A stretch of DNA of 45,335 nt from Minisyncoccia bacterium. Its GTDB lineage: Bacteria > Patescibacteriota > Minisyncoccia > Phycocordibacterales > Phycocordibacteraceae. Below, one piece after another: positions 12,621 to 27,303 of this stretch (the first letter of the stretch is position 1; every line of letters begins with the position of its first letter). The stretch spans positions 1 through 45,335 of the forward strand of contig JBFJWB010000002.1 in the NCBI GenBank assembly GCA_041623915.1, written 5' to 3'. Under the pieces are notes generated by a model. It worked only from the letters and a program-made list of their open reading frames with translations. It was not told the DNA's origin and did not search any database. Both the position numbers and the translations under genes were made by a program.

Positions 12621-12670
12621 GACTATTAAACATAGTACCGTATCGTGACTTATTCAAAAGAGCGATACGA

Positions 12671-12704
12671 ACAATGCCTGTACTTTTAAAAGTACAGGCA
12701 TTGT
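12671..12704 (-). terminator. 17-bp perfect palindrome hairpin downstream of the NYN gene
   Basis: acaatgcctgtactttt/aaaagtacaggcattgt, 17 nt downstream of the stop at 12722. Confidence 0.6.
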
Positions 12705-12721
12705 TGCTTACTGGCCTAAAG

Positions 12722-14542: not shown

Positions 14543-14676
14543 ACGTATTATAGACAAAGGCTAGATTGTTCTTTTGAGTTCTTTCACATCAGCGCGCTCG
14601 TGGCCCTGTTTACGGCCTCACGGCGTATCCGTGTCAAACATAGGACATGGTTCCACACAAAGCGCCCATCATTCTT

Positions 14677-14755
14677 AAGAGCCCCACTTCTCCTCGGAAG
14701 TACCACATCAATGCCCGCTCCTTATCCTCTTCCGGAATAAGGGGCTCTTTTGTTT
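14677..14755 (+). terminator. branched GC-rich hairpin structure followed by a U-tract (terminator or 3' end of an unassigned ncRNA)
   Basis: aagagcccc (14677-85) pairs with ggggctctt (14741-49). Alternative 9-bp stem gctccttat/ataaggggc (14717-25/14737-45). Followed by tcttttgttt. Confidence 0.45.
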
Positions 14756-14766
14756 CCCGTGTAACA
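14752..14766 (-). repeat. 15-mer TGTTACACGGGAAAC (inverted copy)
   Basis: The reverse complement of gtttcccgtgtaaca matches the copies at 14964 and 15010 in 13/15 positions. Confidence 0.6.
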
Positions 14767-14959
14767 TGATTTTGAACGATATAGAATAACTTTTTTACAC
14801 CCCCGCATCTCAAAATAAGTTGTATATTCTTCGTCCCTCTAAATTCTTAGGAAACAATGAACATACACCTTCCATCGCGAAGATTACGAAACAATAGGAT
14901 TTTATTTATATCTCGAAAATCAACAAAAGTACGTGTTTAAGTCACCGAATACACATATT

Positions 14960-15024
14960 TGTGTGTTACACACGAAACAGTAGTGAACAATATTTGACAG
15001 GAAAATGTGTGTTACACGCGAAAC
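14960..15024 (+). repeat. two direct copies of the palindrome-containing motif TGTGTGTTACAC(A/G)CGAAAC, 46 bp apart
   Basis: 14960-14978 and 15006-15024. The core GTGTGT-T-ACACAC is a 6+1+6 palindrome. The second copy abuts the cca stop codon. Confidence 0.6.
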
Positions 15025-15026
15025 GC

Positions 15027-16490
15027 CTAACAGACGTGGTGCTTTTCCATGATCTTTTTTACCTCTTCATCCTCCCTGCGTTCACGTTCTTTCTTTCCTG
15101 ATTCTCCTAACTCTTTTAAATCATTATCTGTAAGCGCAAGTAATTCTTCTGTTCGTTTGTCCATGTATTTATTGGTATTTAGATCAGGATTTTCTAAAAC
15201 TTCCTCAAGAAGAGCGTTTAGCACCCAACCTATTCTTGGTCCCGGTTTCGCGTGGAACATGTCCATAATGTGTTTCCCATCCGTTTCCAACATAGCTACT
15301 GATATAGGATCACGAAGAGCCTGTTCAACCATTGCGATGTATTTTCTAAGACGAAAAGGCTGCTCCTTTGGTCTGCCAGTGCCTATGCGGTCGCATACGC
15401 GCAGATTAAGCAGATCCCAAACGTTTTCTTGGCCCACGTTAGCAATCATACGTCGTACTGCCGATAGAGTAATGACATCAGGATCAGAGAAAAACATGTG
15501 CCAACGAACTAGCTTCACTACCTTTTCTATAGTTTCACGTGGAAAGCGTAGTTCCTCAAGAGCTTTTTTTGTTACACGTGAACCAACCACCTCATGGCCA
15601 TGGAATGTCCAATCATTCTTTTCTTTTGACCACCTTCTGGTTTCCGTCTTAGACACATCATGAAAGAGTCCAGCAAGGCGTACGTCAAAGTTCCAGTCCT
15701 TATCAGCTGCATGTTGCATCGTGCGCATGAGGTGTCCGAAAACATCGTATGAGTGCGCTTGGTTTTGATCTATGCCGACACCACGAGTAAGATCAGGGGC
15801 AATATACACAAGAATACCCAATTGCTGAGCAAGAACGAGAGCCGTCATTGGTTGCTTTGATTGTAGTATGCGCACAAGCTCATCCCGAACTCTTTCACGG
15901 GAAACATGGCTTAAATGCTCGCTGTTTTCTTTAATTGCACCTGCAGTTTCCGTATCTATGGCAAAAGACAGTTCTGCAACAAGGCGGATAGCGCGCATCA
16001 TGCGAAGAGCATCCTCATTAAATCGTTCAGATGCGTTACCAACGGCGCGTAGAACTTTGTCCTTTATATCCTCTTGTCCTTTATACGGGTCAACGAGAAT
16101 ACCGGAGTCTTCATTAAGGGCAATTGCGTTTACTGTAAAGTCACGACGAGCAAGATCATCTTCCAAGGAGACACCAAAGACTACTTTATCAGGACGACGT
16201 TTGTCGGAATATCCAATTTCTGTTCGATAAGGGGTTACTTCTACTATAGTGAGAGACTTGTCTTCAGAACCTGTTTTTATACCTACTGTTCCATAGTCGT
16301 TTTCATAGAAAGAATCTGGGAAGATGGCCTGAATGTCTTCAGGTTTTGCATTTGTTGTAATGTCCCAGTCTTTCGGAATCTTGCCTAACAAGATATCGCG
16401 CACGCAACCACCAACAAGGTATGCGTCAAAGCCATTCGAACGTAATGCTTTTGTGATGGAGGAAATCTCACTTGGAACGGGATAGTTCAT
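15027..16490 (-). CDS. cca: CCA-adding tRNA nucleotidyltransferase with HD domain
   Basis: YLVGGCVRDILLG, DWDITT, RDFTVNA, HD motif LFHDVSK. ATG at 16490 (MNYPVPSE) is preferred over the TTG at 16508. Confidence 0.9.
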   Translation of the reverse strand: MNYPVPSEISSITKALRSNGFDAYLVGGCVRDILLGKIPKDWDITTNAKPEDIQAIFPDSFYENDYGTVGIKTGSEDKSLTIVEVTPYRTEIGYSDKRRPDKVVFGVSLEDDLARRDFTVNAIALNEDSGILVDPYKGQEDIKDKVLRAVGNASERFNEDALRMMRAIRLVAELSFAIDTETAGAIKENSEHLSHVSRERVRDELVRILQSKQPMTALVLAQQLGILVYIAPDLTRGVGIDQNQAHSYDVFGHLMRTMQHAADKDWNFDVRLAGLFHDVSKTETRRWSKEKNDWTFHGHEVVGSRVTKKALEELRFPRETIEKVVKLVRWHMFFSDPDVITLSAVRRMIANVGQENVWDLLNLRVCDRIGTGRPKEQPFRLRKYIAMVEQALRDPISVAMLETDGKHIMDMFHAKPGPRIGWVLNALLEEVLENPDLNTNKYMDKRTEELLALTDNDLKELGESGKKERERREDEEVKKIMEKHHVC

Positions 16491-16783: not shown

Positions 16784-16822
16784 AAAACGCAAAATGGCTT
16801 ATATAAGCCATTTTTGCGTTTT
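16784..16822 (+). terminator. rho-independent terminator after the tRNA pair
   Basis: aaaacgcaaaatggctt-atata-agccatttttgcgtttt, a long stem with one bulge and a U-tail. Confidence 0.7.
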
Positions 16823-19805: not shown

Positions 19806-19895
19806 GAATTTGACTCAACGGTTTTTGACCGACGGGCGCATGGACGGCGCATAGCGCGTGGCATATCGTCATTTGTTTTGGAAATAGGTTAGAGC

Positions 19896-19924
19896 TTGAC
19901 AAACATTACTAAATGGTGTAGTAT
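19896..19924 (+). promoter_or_regulatory. sigma70-like promoter TTGACA-17-TAGTAT
   Basis: TTGACA at 19896-19901, 17-nt spacer, TAGTAT at 19919-19924. Confidence 0.55.
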
Positions 19925-20022
19925 TACATACGGAGTTTTCGGCTCAGGAAAGTAAGTATTAGAGCCGAGAAAATCGGGGAAGTGGACTCGCCCAATCTCG
20001 TCCACATTTGAGGGGAAATAAA

Positions 20023-20103
20023 ATGGCGTATTACGTGGATCCGAATGGCCTCATTTGGTTCTCATGGGAGGATTACTTGAAAGCCTTGAAAGGCTACAAG
20101 TAA
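20023..20103 (+). CDS. 26-aa aromatic-rich micro-ORF (MAYYVDPNGLIWFSWEDYLKALKGYK)
   Basis: SD-like gagggg at 20010-15, 7 nt before the ATG. About 90-nt leader with two hairpins (19939-68, 19982-20005). Its own terminator follows. Confidence 0.4.
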   Translation: MAYYVDPNGLIWFSWEDYLKALKGYK

Positions 20104-20113
20104 AACAATTCGC

Positions 20114-20149
20114 AAAAGACGGCACTGCAGTGAGTGTCGTCTTTATTTT
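20114..20149 (+). terminator. rho-independent terminator of the micro-ORF unit
   Basis: agacggcact-gcagtg-agtgtcgtct (10 bp, one G.U pair), followed by tttatttta. Confidence 0.7.
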
Positions 20150-20160
20150 ATATACAAACG

Positions 20161-20190
20161 AAAATAGCCACCTTTTCGGGTGGCTATTTT
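20161..20190. terminator. bidirectional terminator downstream of the orphan hup 3' fragment
   Basis: aaaatagccacc-ttttcg-ggtggctatttt. Confidence 0.7.
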
Positions 20191-20208
20191 CGTGAAAGAC
20201 GCACTGAT

Positions 20209-20305
20209 TATTTAACTGCGTCCTTGAGTGCTTTTGCGGCGCGGAACTTAGGAGTTCGTGTAGCAGCAATCTGAATAGTCTCACCAGTACGAGGGTTACG
20301 TCCTT
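20209..20305 (-). pseudogene. orphan 3' fragment of hup (last 31 codons); left copy of the 97-bp direct repeat
   Basis: 97/97 identical to 23114-23210. Embedded in the chimeric ORF 20208..20411, whose N-terminal 36 aa show no HU similarity. Confidence 0.85.
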
Positions 20306-21306: not shown

Positions 21307-21408
21307 AAAATAGTTTACATTTTTAAGCTATAGTGAAAATATGCCCATTTCTATTCATTTTTTAGCATACAAAAGCCACAAATTAGTGTCAATAGATAAT
21401 ACCAAGTA

Positions 21409-21436
21409 TTGACTCTTACATAAAACCTGCTATGAT
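21409..21436 (+). promoter_or_regulatory. promoter TTGACT-16-TGcTATGAT (extended -10)
   Basis: Sits 35 nt upstream of the ATG at 21472. SD aagggag at 21458-64. Confidence 0.6.
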
Positions 21437-21471
21437 TAGTCTCAGACTCAGTTCAAAAAGGGAGTAGTACC

Positions 21472-21811
21472 ATGAAATATTTTGGCTTTGCGTTGGCGGA
21501 CTCGATGTTCGTCGGGGAGTGTGTTATCGTCCGCCGTAATCTTACGGTGGACGAGGTAAAGCTGGCGGTTCAGGAGGGTGTCGAGCCCTGTCTGAACCCG
21601 TCGCACCAGGCAACCATCAATGCCATGCGTTCGCGCTATGGCATTGATGTGGCGATCCCAGACGCTCCCCCCCCGGGTGTGTCTGGGTCACGGTGACTCG
21701 CTCATAGTTATGGGAGTCCGCGGCTTACCGCGGCTTACAAAAAGCCACGAATACAGCGATGAAGAGATCGCGGGAGCGACCTTCACATTCTCTCTGTACT
21801 CGGTCTCCTGA
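21472..21811 (+). pseudogene. DUF1874-like (STIV B116 / AcrIII-1 ring-nuclease family) gene interrupted by a frameshift in a C8 run
   Basis: ORFs 21472..21696 and 21620..21811 are in frames differing by +1. Removing one C from the run at 21667-21674 gives one 112-aa protein, ...CLNPSHQATINAMRSRYGIDVAIPDAPPRVCLGHGDSLIVMGVRGLPRLTKSHEYSDEEIAGATFTFSLYSVS. This follows the DUF1874 pattern (conserved His, GD-LIV strand, EE...F-F C-terminus). Confidence 0.6.
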
Positions 21812-21923: not shown

Positions 21924-21985
21924 GGAAGTTTACTTCCCCTATCTATTGAGCGCTTAAACAAATGTTTGAGCTCTCATAGATACTT
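21924..21985 (+). repeat. 62-bp double-palindrome repeat, copy 1
   Basis: 60/62 identical to 22997-23058. Lies 31 nt upstream of the ATG at 22017. Confidence 0.85.
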
Positions 21986-22016
21986 TGTTCTTTTGCATTA
22001 AATAAAAGGAAAAAAA

Positions 22017-22712
22017 ATGAAAGAATTTTCTTTCAGTAGAAGGGGGCAGCGGCAGAGCATTCTGTTAGTTGACGTTTTTCGTATTGTGGGTGGAGAGCGA
22101 GTCCCGCTCGTCTACGATTCCATCCCGACAGAGGCTTTCTTCCCTGTTGTTTTCATCATCGGGCGCAATGTTAACAGAGCTCGCGCCCGAGCCGAGGATT
22201 TTATTAGCAAAAATCCTAGTTTTTCAGGAGGAGTCCTCTATGAGGACGATGGTTCGCTGTCATGTGGAGACAGCGCAACTCTCCTGCTCGTCAACCTCCC
22301 TGAAGTGGGGATGGTTGACGAGCCTCGTGTGATGAAAGCTAAGGCCGCAAAGACGGCCAAACAGCTTGCCGAGCGTGAGGAACAACTCAGGAAAAGTATA
22401 ATAGCCGGGCTCTCAGGACGATGGTTGTTAAACGCCCTGAGGGATGACAAGCACCCCTTCGTGCTGCTTATCGATCTGGTGGTCGGCTGCTCCACGGGCA
22501 CCATCTCGTGGAATACCTTACGTTCGGAAGAACGTAAGGTCGTAATTCAGCTTACTGCCCTAAACCAAAAGCTCGGGAAAGCATACATAGCCCTCTACTA
22601 TGGAAGCCCAGAGCTGCAGGAAGAACTGCGCAAGAACTTTCTTGCGGTGAAAGAGGAGGTGATAATGGCGGCAGCTGAAATTTCTTCTAACATAAAAACA
22701 AAGGAGAGTTAA
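22017..22712 (+). CDS. hypothetical protein (231 aa), high-GC orphan
   Basis: ATG preceded by aaaagga. Two-domain layout with a K/A-rich linker (KAKAAKTAKQLAEREEQLRK). No motif recognised. Confidence 0.6.
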   Translation: MKEFSFSRRGQRQSILLVDVFRIVGGERVPLVYDSIPTEAFFPVVFIIGRNVNRARARAEDFISKNPSFSGGVLYEDDGSLSCGDSATLLLVNLPEVGMVDEPRVMKAKAAKTAKQLAEREEQLRKSIIAGLSGRWLLNALRDDKHPFVLLIDLVVGCSTGTISWNTLRSEERKVVIQLTALNQKLGKAYIALYYGSPELQEELRKNFLAVKEEVIMAAAEISSNIKTKES

Positions 22713-22714
22713 GA

Positions 22715-22846
22715 ATGGACAAGAAAATGTCTAGGAGGACCAAGCATGGTGGGAAGACAGAACGGTGGGATACCCACCGTAACCTGAAGGTTGCGCGCAA
22801 GCGCAACCGGAAGAACGCACGTCGGATCGCCATTCTGGAGGGGTAA
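22715..22846 (+). CDS. 43-aa highly basic peptide (MDKKMSRRTKHGGKTERWDTHRNLKVARKRNRKNARRIAILEG)
   Basis: SD aaggag at 22701-06 inside the end of the upstream ORF. The ATG is 2 nt after the upstream stop, which suggests translational coupling. Below the ORF-track cutoff. Confidence 0.4.
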   Translation: MDKKMSRRTKHGGKTERWDTHRNLKVARKRNRKNARRIAILEG

Positions 22847-22996
22847 CGTCCCGATTACATCTCCAGAGTCGTTCTCTGGTAGCTCGAGAAAACCAACGAG
22901 TATAAATGTATGGTCGAGAGTTTGTATCACGGGTAGACACTCTCGTTAATAAAAAATCACACACGTGAGCCATTGAGGAAGCAGAGCCTCGTCGGG

Positions 22997-23058
22997 GGAA
23001 GTTTACTTCCCCTATCTATTGAGTGCTTAAACAAATGTTTGAGCACTCATAGATACTT
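22997..23058 (+). repeat. 62-bp double-palindrome repeat, copy 2
   Basis: Contains GGGGAAGT-TT-ACTTCCCC (22995-23012) and TGAGTGCTTAAACAAATGTTTGAGCACTCA (23020-23049). Confidence 0.85.
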
Positions 23059-23067
23059 ATTTTTTAA

Positions 23068-23098
23068 CAAAAGACCGCCAGCTTGCTGGCGGTCTTTT
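23068..23098. terminator. bidirectional terminator just downstream of the intact hup
   Basis: aaaagaccgccag-cttg-ctggcggtctttt. Confidence 0.75.
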
Positions 23099-23112
23099 GC
23101 GATAAGTAACGG

Positions 23113-23385
23113 CTATTTAACTGCGTCCTTGAGTGCTTTTGCGGCGCGGAACTTAGGAGTTCGTGTAGCAGCAATCTGAATAGTCTCACCAGTACGAGGG
23201 TTACGTCCTTGACGCGCTGGGCGTGCCTTTGTTGCGAAGATACCTAACCCTGCGATGGATACTTCCTCTCCTTGAGAAAGTGCCATAGTTACGTTCTCAA
23301 TAATTGTTTCAACAGCGCGCTCTGCGTCGGCCTTAGTCGAACCGAGCGTGTCTTGAACCTTGCTCACAATGTCTGCTTTGTTCAT
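23113..23385 (-). CDS. hup: HU-family DNA-binding protein
   Basis: MNKADIVSKVQ...[47 protein letters not shown] at 23385 is preferred over the extended ORF start at 23460. 90 aa. Confidence 0.92.
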   Translation of the reverse strand: MNKADIVSKVQDTLGSTKADAERAVETIIENVTMALSQGEEVSIAGLGIFATKARPARQGRNPRTGETIQIAATRTPKFRAAKALKDAVK

Positions 23386-27185: not shown

Positions 27186-27254
27186 GAGTATCGCCTCCTA
27201 AACTAAAAAGAATTATATCTATATGCGTTTATACTCTGATATCTGCATATATGC

Positions 27255-27285
27255 AAAACCACCTACATACAATGTAGGTGGTTTT
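27255..27285. terminator. bidirectional terminator after nusA
   Basis: aaaaccacctaca-tacaa-tgtaggtggtttt. Confidence 0.75.
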
Positions 27286-27303
27286 GAGAAACAGTAAGGC
27301 AAT

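Follow-up and report, generated by a model that had tools for sequence, protein, structure and literature searches.

The locus studied here raises the question of what a pair of nearly identical direct repeats is doing around a small ORFan cassette. It lies in a 45,335-nt stretch of contig JBFJWB010000002.1 from a Minisyncoccia bacterium of the phylum Patescibacteriota (the whole stretch is hereafter called the window), in which two 62-bp units bracket the open reading frames (ORFs) orf231 and orf43, just downstream of a TrmB-like regulator gene and a divergent gene of the DUF1874 family. Our analysis shows that the two repeats are copies of a conserved, strand-specific and structured composite element, consisting of two consecutive hairpins, that separates small genes in TrmB/DUF1874 islands; it thereby supports the view that the units are functional conserved sequences delimiting a cassette and not chance repeats. 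As to what the element might do, sequence comparison leads us to propose, with moderate confidence, that it acts in the transcript as a piece of RNA punctuation and that it also marks the junctions between cassettes.

The first-pass annotation of this DNA had described the units as matching at 60/62 positions (21924-21985 and 22997-23058) and as carrying two palindromes each. Recomputing the pairwise match reproduces the former value and shows that the likeness reaches 69 nt at 93%, there being two unit copies, and no more, within the window. Both palindromes are indeed found. The first, P1, reads GGGGAAG-TTTA-CTTCCCC in copy 2 and is cut down to GGAAG..CTTCC in copy 1; the second, P2, turns out to be longer than the 30 nt originally assigned to it, being a hairpin of 43 nt (TATCTATTGAGTGCTTAAACA-AA-TGTTTGAGCACTCATAGATA) in which a single T is bulged and a single pair is G.T. 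The distance of 31 nt from the end of copy 1 to the ATG at 22017 also stands as it was given, and both copies are located on the strand of the DUF1874 gene, 128 nt and 1.2 kb downstream of it. When folded as + strand RNA, the copy 2 unit reaches -36.3 kcal/mol (z = -9.4 vs shuffles) and the copy 1 unit -25.4 kcal/mol (z = -5.7 vs shuffles), the + strand fold beating the - strand fold in both units.

The two differences between the units (21951 C / 23024 T and 21972 T / 23045 A) are partners of a single P2 pair, so that the striking claim that both substitutions hit mutually pairing positions is upheld, the chance of such a coincidence being 24/1891 = 0.013. Copy 1 hence has a C.U mismatch in P2, where copy 2 has U-A and is fully paired. 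The commonest state of this pair in the family described below is C-G, the states seen in the window being U-A in copy 2 and C.U in copy 1. That the substitutions affect one pair without restoring it may possibly reflect an incomplete compensatory path, or else selection for a weaker internal copy.

The lead to a wider family was provided by the flanks of an orf231 homolog in locus L081, together with a motif that recurs in loci L119, L140, L151 and L162. The layout common to the family is that of a GC-rich hairpin of free sequence (hairpin 1, P1 in the window) followed at once by a second hairpin (hairpin 2, P2 in the window) and usually then by a ribosome-binding site (RBS) and a start codon. 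Hairpin 2 is made up of CTCTATT[C/G]AG, a variable inner stem-loop and [C/T]T[C/G]AT.GAG; one T of its outer helix is bulged. A covariance model, R1, was built from 17 instances on other contigs, the window being left out, and was run on the 45 kb on both strands with filters off; it returned 23012-23056 at 27.7 bits (E 5e-5) and 21939-21983 at 25.7 bits (E 1.8e-4), the next-best match in the window scoring 11.5 bits. The P2 sequence of the window aligns in register with the 17 others, bulged T included, and its outermost pair is A-U for C-G, which is a compensatory change.

The pattern of substitutions across the family is that of a conserved helix. One pair of hairpin 2 is C..G in 12 and G..C in 5 of the 17 distinct instances, with 0 mixed; over 19 sequences, 93.5% of the cells are paired, vs 83% in shuffles and 31-43% when the partners are slid, and the double-sided changes observed number 25 vs 7.3 +/- 2.2 expected. 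An alignment of 29 distinct sequences displays double-sided changes at 12/15 pairs, a value reached by 0/500 shuffles. In 13/19 sequences a conserved pair is G.U, and therefore the fold exists on the + strand only. The spacing between the arms varies across the family, from 18 to 31 nt of variable sequence.

The distribution of the element is equally telling of where it belongs. DUF1874 loci, amounting to 0.555 Mb, contain 46 R1 matches (83 per Mb), of which 45/46 are on the strand of the DUF1874 gene, as compared with 5 matches (3.8 per Mb) in 1.32 Mb of loci anchored on RNase Y; the DUF1874/TrmB islands are thus 22-fold enriched, and several of the five RNase Y-anchored matches are themselves in variable or hotspot segments or flank an orf231 homolog. 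Hairpin 1 is at or below -8 kcal/mol in 32/34 distinct copies (median -15) and ends 0-2 nt before hairpin 2. A Shine-Dalgarno sequence (SD) and start codon follow in 24/34 distinct copies, at a median of 19 nt, the remaining 10/34 having none downstream; typically the element is found 6-80 nt past one stop codon and some 10-40 nt before the next RBS. On the contigs that bear it, the genes for HU, RNase Y, ClpP, FtsEX, RF-2 and trigger factor adjoin elements, so these contigs look like chromosomal islands. The concern that the 62-bp unit might be a generic genome-wide repetitive extragenic palindrome (REP) is allayed, the 42 kb of host DNA around the insert having 0 copies.

Searches of existing collections returned no named counterpart. 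At permissive thresholds, Rfam 15, including its CRISPR direct-repeat families, had no family matching the element, the window yielding tRNA and rRNA genes plus sub-threshold matches at chance level. The exact or degenerate P2 core gave 0 matches in viral, genome and metagenome collections, an exact search that is misleading because the inner stem is variable. A gapped-pattern scan of viral contigs produced 19 single matches at 20-29 bits where, by a rough estimate, about 20 are expected by chance, which provides no evidence for the element in those contigs. As far as Rfam 15 and an incomplete literature search tell, the family is apparently undescribed, a description outside Rfam being possible.

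The islands that carry the element are mosaics of cassettes. Locus L014 repeats the plan of the window, with a TrmB-like gene (-), a DUF1874 gene (+), a two-hairpin unit, a small unrelated ORF and again a unit, the sequence of both unit and ORF differing from those in the window; in L081, two-hairpin units stand on both sides of the orf231 homolog, the upstream one scoring with the model. Direct intergenic repeats that bracket small genes were found in 7/27 DUF1874 loci and in 7/38 hotspots downstream of HU vs 1/38 and 1/38 in housekeeping controls, and are thus about tenfold commoner in island and hotspot regions than in housekeeping DNA. These intergenic repeat units are of two sorts, namely hairpins and modules of promoter, leader and RBS; at other DUF1874 loci, a full promoter (TTGACA-17-TATAAT), a structured leader and an RBS are repeated before successive small genes. 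In L151, L162 and L140, the TrmB-DUF1874 module is 88-95% identical and is then followed by a mosaic in which conserved intergenic blocks of 47-129 nt lie between unrelated genes. Two extra segments of L162 are bounded by three copies of the 32-nt sequence TTCAACTCAAGCACCACCGGGCAGTGGTCAGA, which is present as a single copy at that place in L140.

How might such an element work? The whole proposal is that of a signal read in the transcript, and a strand-specific single-stranded structure is the form that we favour. Hairpin 1, which is matched by a terminator scan, would terminate or attenuate transcription, and the host's own terminators are likewise long-stem hairpins. Hairpin 2 would be a site recognised by a protein or an RNase for processing, stability or translation control, as suggested by its conserved outer helix, its bulge and the nearby RBS. 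Neither a promoter scan nor reading by eye revealed a promoter-like site in or adjoining either unit, and because there is no promoter between the element and the next gene, genes downstream of it would be expressed by read-through; the strength of each element copy would therefore be meaningful. In the window, the weakened copy 1 (5-bp hairpin 1, C.U mismatch, -25 kcal/mol) would let transcription from the DUF1874 promoter read through into orf231-orf43, and the intact copy 2 (-36 kcal/mol), together with a second terminator, would end the unit and shield the convergent HU gene from antisense transcription. By recurring at gene boundaries, the element might furthermore offer homology for the gain and loss of cassettes, and the presence of near-identical copies on both sides of a foreign ORFan cassette would be explained if it supplied such homology at each boundary.

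Several observations weigh against this proposal. The sequence after hairpin 1, CUCUAUU or UAUCUAUU, makes a poor U-tract; a strong terminator would silence the downstream genes, given that a promoter is absent between hairpin 1 and the next gene; and copy 2 has no downstream gene at all. Folded single-stranded DNA would give similar covariation, G.T pairs and orientation bias. The window copies score 26-28 bits, well under the 35-58 bits of the core members, and, being duplicates, they represent one independent event. The alignment of 29 sequences was itself fitted to the model, and the association of homology breakpoints with repeat units under objective definitions reaches p = 0.06.

A rather unlikely extension of the punctuation proposal is that a dedicated cassette-handling system of Patescibacteria recognises hairpin 2, be it as an attC-like site served by an unrecognised recombinase or as a protein-bound RNA signal; in the latter variant, the Arg-rich 43-aa peptide, for instance, or another island protein could control the termination or translation of each cassette of an anti-defence island.

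The recombination-site idea can be taken by itself, in which case hairpin 2 would be a single-stranded DNA site akin to the attC of integrons, acted upon by a recombinase encoded in trans, with orf231-orf43 as a cassette at a pre-existing site. Its build is indeed reminiscent of attC (conserved ends, a bulged T, a variable inner stem and a fixed orientation with respect to co-oriented small ORFs), a near-identical pair surrounds an ORFan cassette of foreign codon composition, the related islands are built as mosaics of cassettes joined at conserved blocks, and folded DNA tolerates G.T pairs. We nevertheless hold this reading to be unlikely: the sequence has neither the integron boxes RYYYAAC / GTTRRRY nor an AAC...GTT frame on either strand; neither the neighbouring genes in the window nor the larger ORFs inspected in five islands rich in the element included a tyrosine or serine recombinase; an element so closely joined to a terminator-like hairpin on its upstream side and to an RBS on its downstream side fits a role in the transcript better; and the breakpoint test is weak. 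In the five islands in question (L151, L140, L162, L050 and L105), 10 larger ORFs were inspected on contigs with limited flanks, and no recombinase was found among them. The suggestion that the repeats are recombination sites of a nested cassette keeps a small probability in view of the mosaic structure with its conserved intergenic blocks, although no recombinase is present among the genes inspected.

The alternative function put forward in the first-pass annotation, in which the repeats serve as operators of a dimeric regulator, fares worse, and we attach a low probability to P2 being a double-stranded palindromic operator through which the TrmB-like protein or another dimeric regulator would co-regulate the downstream genes. 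It is true that the 10-mer TATCTATTGA occurs three times in the window, in both units and over the -35 box of the TrmB promoter, and that TrmB-like genes co-occur with the element at many loci. The 10-mer coincidence, however, has p about 0.02-0.03, and the TrmB/DUF1874 intergenic regions conserve TTGACA/TGTCAA boxes and a different palindrome instead of P2; in addition, no promoter-like site is found in or beside the units. The variable arm spacing of 18-31 nt, the compensatory changes, which at one pair leave CG:12 and GC:7 with none broken, the G.U pairs in 13/19 sequences, each of which would be a half-site mismatch in a duplex, and the fixed orientation (45/46 on the same strand) argue for a folded single strand over a duplex operator.

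Comparably improbable is that the units have no specific function, having arisen by duplication of a terminator region when the cassette was gained or by mis-assembly across short repeats. The occurrence of only two copies in the window and the failure to find the exact P2 core in any of the collections would be accounted for in this way, and the 62-nt and 97-nt repeats are shorter than typical assembly k-mers plus read length, which makes a wrong join conceivable; against this, a model trained elsewhere picks out both copies, the units have the hairpin-1 and RBS context of the family, and a like layout is seen in independent contigs from many samples. RNA anti-CRISPRs exist. That hairpin 2 is such a molecule, i.e. 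an RNA decoy of a CRISPR repeat or a solitary repeat unit beside a ring-nuclease homolog, is very improbable: at 37-50 nt it is partly palindromic and sequence-conserved as a CRISPR repeat would be, it clusters around a gene whose family includes AcrIII-1 (bioRxiv 10.1101/778746), and there are weak resemblances of the TrmB winged helix-turn-helix (wHTH) to Csa3/CasR and of DUF1874 to Csx16, but no Rfam CRISPR direct repeat matches at permissive thresholds, the inner helix varies freely, unlike that of CRISPR repeats, the many copies per island, one per gene boundary with an RBS after it, suit punctuation better, and the window has no CRISPR array.

Returning to the element as transcript punctuation, we turn to the genes it delimits. 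The 231-aa ORF, the adjoining 43-aa Arg/Lys-rich ORF and the 150-nt spacer are all present as first described, except that the spacer is only mildly structured (z = -2.4) and not hairpin-rich. The GC content of about 58-62% attributed to the segment was wrong: the cassette stands at 48.1%, orf231 at 50.3% and orf43 at 55.3%, the DUF1874 gene alone reaching 56.8%, with 43.2% for the whole window. The GC content of third codon positions (GC3) is 0.55 in orf231, 0.70 in orf43 and 0.67 in the DUF1874 gene, vs 0.35-0.42 in host genes and 0.38 in the TrmB-like gene; it is these values, above those of the host genes, that mark the three as foreign.

Neither orf231 nor orf43 matched anything in Pfam, PHROGs, PADLOC, NCBIfam, PDB or fold libraries. 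A word-indexed search of 5.8 billion proteins recovered the orf231 query alone, and a profile search gave nothing more; an exhaustive phmmer search of 1.84 billion representatives uncovered three genuine relatives: P0002 (41%), P0005 (26%) and, for the N-terminal domain only, P0003 (46%). A fourth match, to a 2147-aa repeat protein, was discarded as spurious, consisting of 11 weak stretches. The genes neighbouring the relatives are mostly unannotated, and the long contigs (those of P0003 and P0005) are Patescibacteria-like. A single-sequence AlphaFold model of orf231 was unusable (predicted local distance difference test, pLDDT, 43); AlphaFold2 on the four-sequence alignment predicted, with pLDDT 79.4 and a predicted template-modelling score (pTM) of 0.55, a domain rich in beta structure at the N-terminus and a helical bundle at the C-terminus. 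Foldseek of this model against PDB and BFVD gave nothing below E = 0.03, and a PDB profile search gave nothing either, so that structure prediction and Foldseek, the check proposed at the outset, leave the protein in no recognised family, as had been thought. No homologs of orf43 were found and it is not conserved beside the orf231 relatives; blastn of the cassette against annotated phages and plasmids had no match. The idea that the two ORFs are anti-defence or addiction genes is backed by none of the searches of protein and fold libraries, and their assignment as anti-defence genes is not supported.

The whole region, moreover, is an insertion. A perfect 97-nt direct repeat, overlooked in the first-pass annotation, encloses it (20209-20305 = 23114-23210, 97/97) and corresponds to the 3' end of the HU gene, the identity beginning at the second base of the HU stop codon and each repeat copy being followed by a terminator of its own. 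Integration logic assigns the right-hand one of these terminators, at 23068-23099, to the inserted element. The ORFs of the insert are those of the TrmB-like protein, the frameshifted DUF1874 protein, orf231 and orf43; domain searches detected no recombinase, integrase or excisionase in the insert or among the neighbouring genes of the window. Across 42 related genomes, the genes for ClpP, RNase Y, HU, tRNA-Gly(tcc) and a trypsin-like protease follow one another in this sequence, with tRNA-Gly convergent in nearly all, and since the gap from HU to the tRNA ranges from 66 nt to 8.8 kb among these relatives, HU/tRNA-Gly is an insertion hotspot. Taking the 2905 bp out of the window gives back the compact HU / tRNA-Gly / protease layout. 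The window is a Patescibacteria chromosome of Paceibacterota/Kaiserbacteria-like type, its RNase Y being at most about 80% identical to that of species representatives and exact-sequence look-ups of the HU and TrmB-like proteins returning no record.

Some side observations concern other loci and the host DNA. Diverged duplicates of the RNase Y 3' end (60-89% identity) surround inserted DNA in L005 (11425-15472) and L014 (11471-12915); this DNA contains toxin-antitoxin-like, Fic and radical-SAM-like genes, with no integrase seen. In L005, a TrmB-like gene (14554-15366) ends right before the duplicated RNase Y fragment, which mirrors the order of TrmB gene and HU fragment in the window. The intergenic terminators of the host are unusually long perfect hairpins, with stems of 12-16 bp flanked by an A-run and a T-run, and are apparently bidirectional. 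The segment from tRNA-Gly to the HU fragment (19806-20208) has a promoter-like site at 19896-19924, a 31-aa ORF at 20008-20103, for which no homologs were found, and two back-to-back terminators.

What the first-pass annotation took the neighbouring genes to be is supported, for the TrmB-like neighbour by its PF01978 match and for the Acr-like/DUF1874 neighbour by the PF08960-carrying relatives of its homolog in L014. The viral ring nuclease AcrIII-1 is a member of the DUF1874 family (10.1101/778746). In the window copy the frame is disrupted by a single additional C within the C8 run at 21667-21674, a feature that had escaped notice; it aligns with the intact 127-aa protein of L014 as two tblastn segments in different frames with 63-67% identity, and its homologs read ...PPRV... 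across the C8 point. The frameshift could mean that the gene is a pseudogene, that the homopolymer was misread in sequencing or that the tract is phase-variable. A search with the L014 homolog found 615 relatives, many with PF08960; the window copy has no Pfam match, even with its two frames joined. Of about 90 DUF1874-bearing loci, about 20 have a TrmB-like gene next to the DUF1874 gene or near it.

With regard to the intergenic regions between the two genes (window 21307-21471, L151 4551-5001, L014 5042-5191 and others), they contain 2-4 TTGACA/TGTCAA boxes, inverted or direct, which is more than two promoters would need, and in both the window and L151 a GAGTCTCAGACTC-type palindrome lies just 5' of the DUF1874 RBS. 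The boxes and this palindrome are candidate sites of the TrmB-like regulator. The wHTH of the TrmB-like protein has a weak match to the helix-turn-helix of CasR/Csa3 (E 2e-4 to 6e-4, below cut-offs), and the DUF1874 protein of L014 (5192-5572) a weak match to Csx16 (E 4e-3); these are hints that the TrmB/DUF1874 pair may relate to cyclic-oligoadenylate signalling.

Table. Coordinates of the features discussed; positions are those of the window unless a locus is named.
Feature	Position	Strand	Remarks
Host-type long-stem terminators	12670-12705, 16791-16814, 27254-27286, 20158-20193, 23068-23099		
Terminator past displaced HU fragment	20158-20193		Terminator scan
Displaced HU 3' fragment	20209..20305	-	Last 31.7 codons + 2 nt of stop; PF00216 profile positions 59-90; att-like
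Inserted segment	20306..23113		2905 bp including one repeat copy; mosaic of host-like TrmB gene and foreign higher-GC3 genes
TrmB-like winged-helix regulator, 268 aa	20500..21306	-	PF01978, E 5e-12; 40% identity in L151, L152, L162
Divergent promoter region	21307..21471		Facing -35 boxes GTCAATA-N13-TATTGAC; palindrome AGTCTCAGACT common with L151
10-mer TATCTATTGA	21389-21398	-	Over -35 of TrmB promoter
DUF1874-family gene (AcrIII-1/Crn2-type ring-nuclease family)	21472..21811	+	Reads as ORFs 21472-21696 and 21620-21811
Hairpin 1, copy 1	21924..21937	+	GGAAG-TTTA-CTTCC; stem down to 5 bp; -7.7 kcal/mol
Hairpin 2, copy 1 (P2)	21939..21983	+	One C.U mismatch; orf231 SD/ATG 33 nt downstream
orf231, 231 aa	22017-22712	+	Four-member family in Patescibacteria-like contigs
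orf43, 43 aa	22715-22846	+	16 K/R; AAGGAG SD; start 2 nt past orf231 stop
Spacer, orf43 to element copy 2	22847..22993	+	Mildly structured
Hairpin 1, copy 2	22994..23012	+	GGGGGAAG-TTTA-CTTCCCC, then TATCTATT; terminator-like; -18.3 kcal/mol
Hairpin 2, copy 2	23012..23056	+	Full pairing; then CTTATTTTTT
Bidirectional terminator	23068..23099		15-bp perfect stem, A/T-run flanks; between element copy 2 and HU stop codon
Intact HU gene	23113..23385	-	PF00216, E 9.5e-31; last 97 nt = right repeat copy
Promoter-leader-RBS repeats	L165 397-540, 1369-1513; L112 4746-4942, 5509-5706; L128 959-1007, 2150-2205, 2504-2577		
TTCAACTCAAGCACCACCGGGCAGTGGTCAGA copies	L162 4828-4859, 5383-5414, 6494-6525		vs L140 3739-3874; repeat-bounded indel

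Patescibacteria, also known as the candidate phyla radiation (CPR), make up a large share of bacterial diversity, and almost nothing is known of their mobile DNA, their gene regulation and their anti-defence biology. A structured element with covariation support, for which a working covariance model is now available, offers a handle on all three. By marking the boundaries of small genes in islands with TrmB-like and DUF1874 (AcrIII-1-family) genes, it is useful for delimiting cassettes and for finding islands in metagenomes, and it lets the expression of horizontally acquired genes in streamlined genomes be probed. The locus also documents insertion into the 3' ends of protein-coding genes, HU as well as RNase Y, without a resident integrase, and raises the question of whether cassette shuffling at conserved regulatory hairpins, so far a matter of T4-type phages, is a general route of gene gain. 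Were hairpin 2 truly the site of a dedicated cassette-handling system, it would amount to a new, phylum-wide way to assemble and express arrays of ORFans around a DUF1874 ring-nuclease gene.

Four known systems invite comparison. The insert as a whole resembles an integrative element that targets 3' ends, as in an att-flanked island or a remnant of the cis-mobilizable element (CIME) type: the 2.9-kb insert lies between perfect 97-nt copies of the HU 3' end, an intact HU gene is restored, the terminator originally downstream has stayed with the displaced fragment, relatives have an insertion hotspot at this site, and L005 and L014 have analogous duplications of the RNase Y 3' end. It differs from such elements in having no integrase or excisionase in the insert or nearby and, at 2.9 kb, in being too small for autonomy, and the 97-nt duplication could equally derive from Campbell-type homologous insertion of a circular fragment.

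At the level of the hairpins, REPs and bacterial interspersed mosaic elements (BIMEs), like the RNase III sites between the early genes of phage T7, act in mRNA on stability, processing and partial termination, REPs being dispersed genome-wide in hundreds of copies. The element described here resembles them in being a repeated, structured intergenic hairpin within co-directional gene arrays. Unlike REPs, it is kept to island segments (it is lacking from the flanking host DNA and sparse in housekeeping-anchored loci), and no gene for a REP-associated tyrosine transposase (RAYT) was seen. With attC sites it has in common an imperfect palindrome that is conserved in structure, contains an extrahelical base and varies at its centre, a position at the boundary of each small, co-oriented and often promoterless ORFan cassette, and a strand-specific function. 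It departs from them in that the R''/R' consensus boxes are absent, in that no integron integrase or other recombinase was found nearby, and in that a terminator-like hairpin is joined to its upstream side and the next RBS adjoins it downstream.

The promoter-early stem-loop (PeSL) of T4-type phages combines a promoter with a terminator stem-loop in a repeated unit, which flanks ORFans and through which modules are shuffled (PMC2839356, PMC4122927). A strong sigma70-like promoter defines the PeSL, whereas none is present in the window units and arms 18-31 nt apart cannot be reconciled with -35/-10 geometry; because this defining promoter is absent, the element is not a PeSL. What is conserved in it is a covarying helix carrying a bulged base rather than promoter boxes, its host is an island in a Patescibacteria chromosome rather than a T4-type phage, and mini-circles belong to the PeSL. 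The PeSL is nonetheless its closest counterpart in behaviour, given that both are short composite intergenic motifs with a terminator or attenuator stem-loop (predicted in the present case) that flank ORFans in hypervariable regions and both have G-T pairs in their stems; PeSL copies are exchange points, with related genomes differing by motif-bounded cassettes, and the copies of the present element may likewise act as such points.

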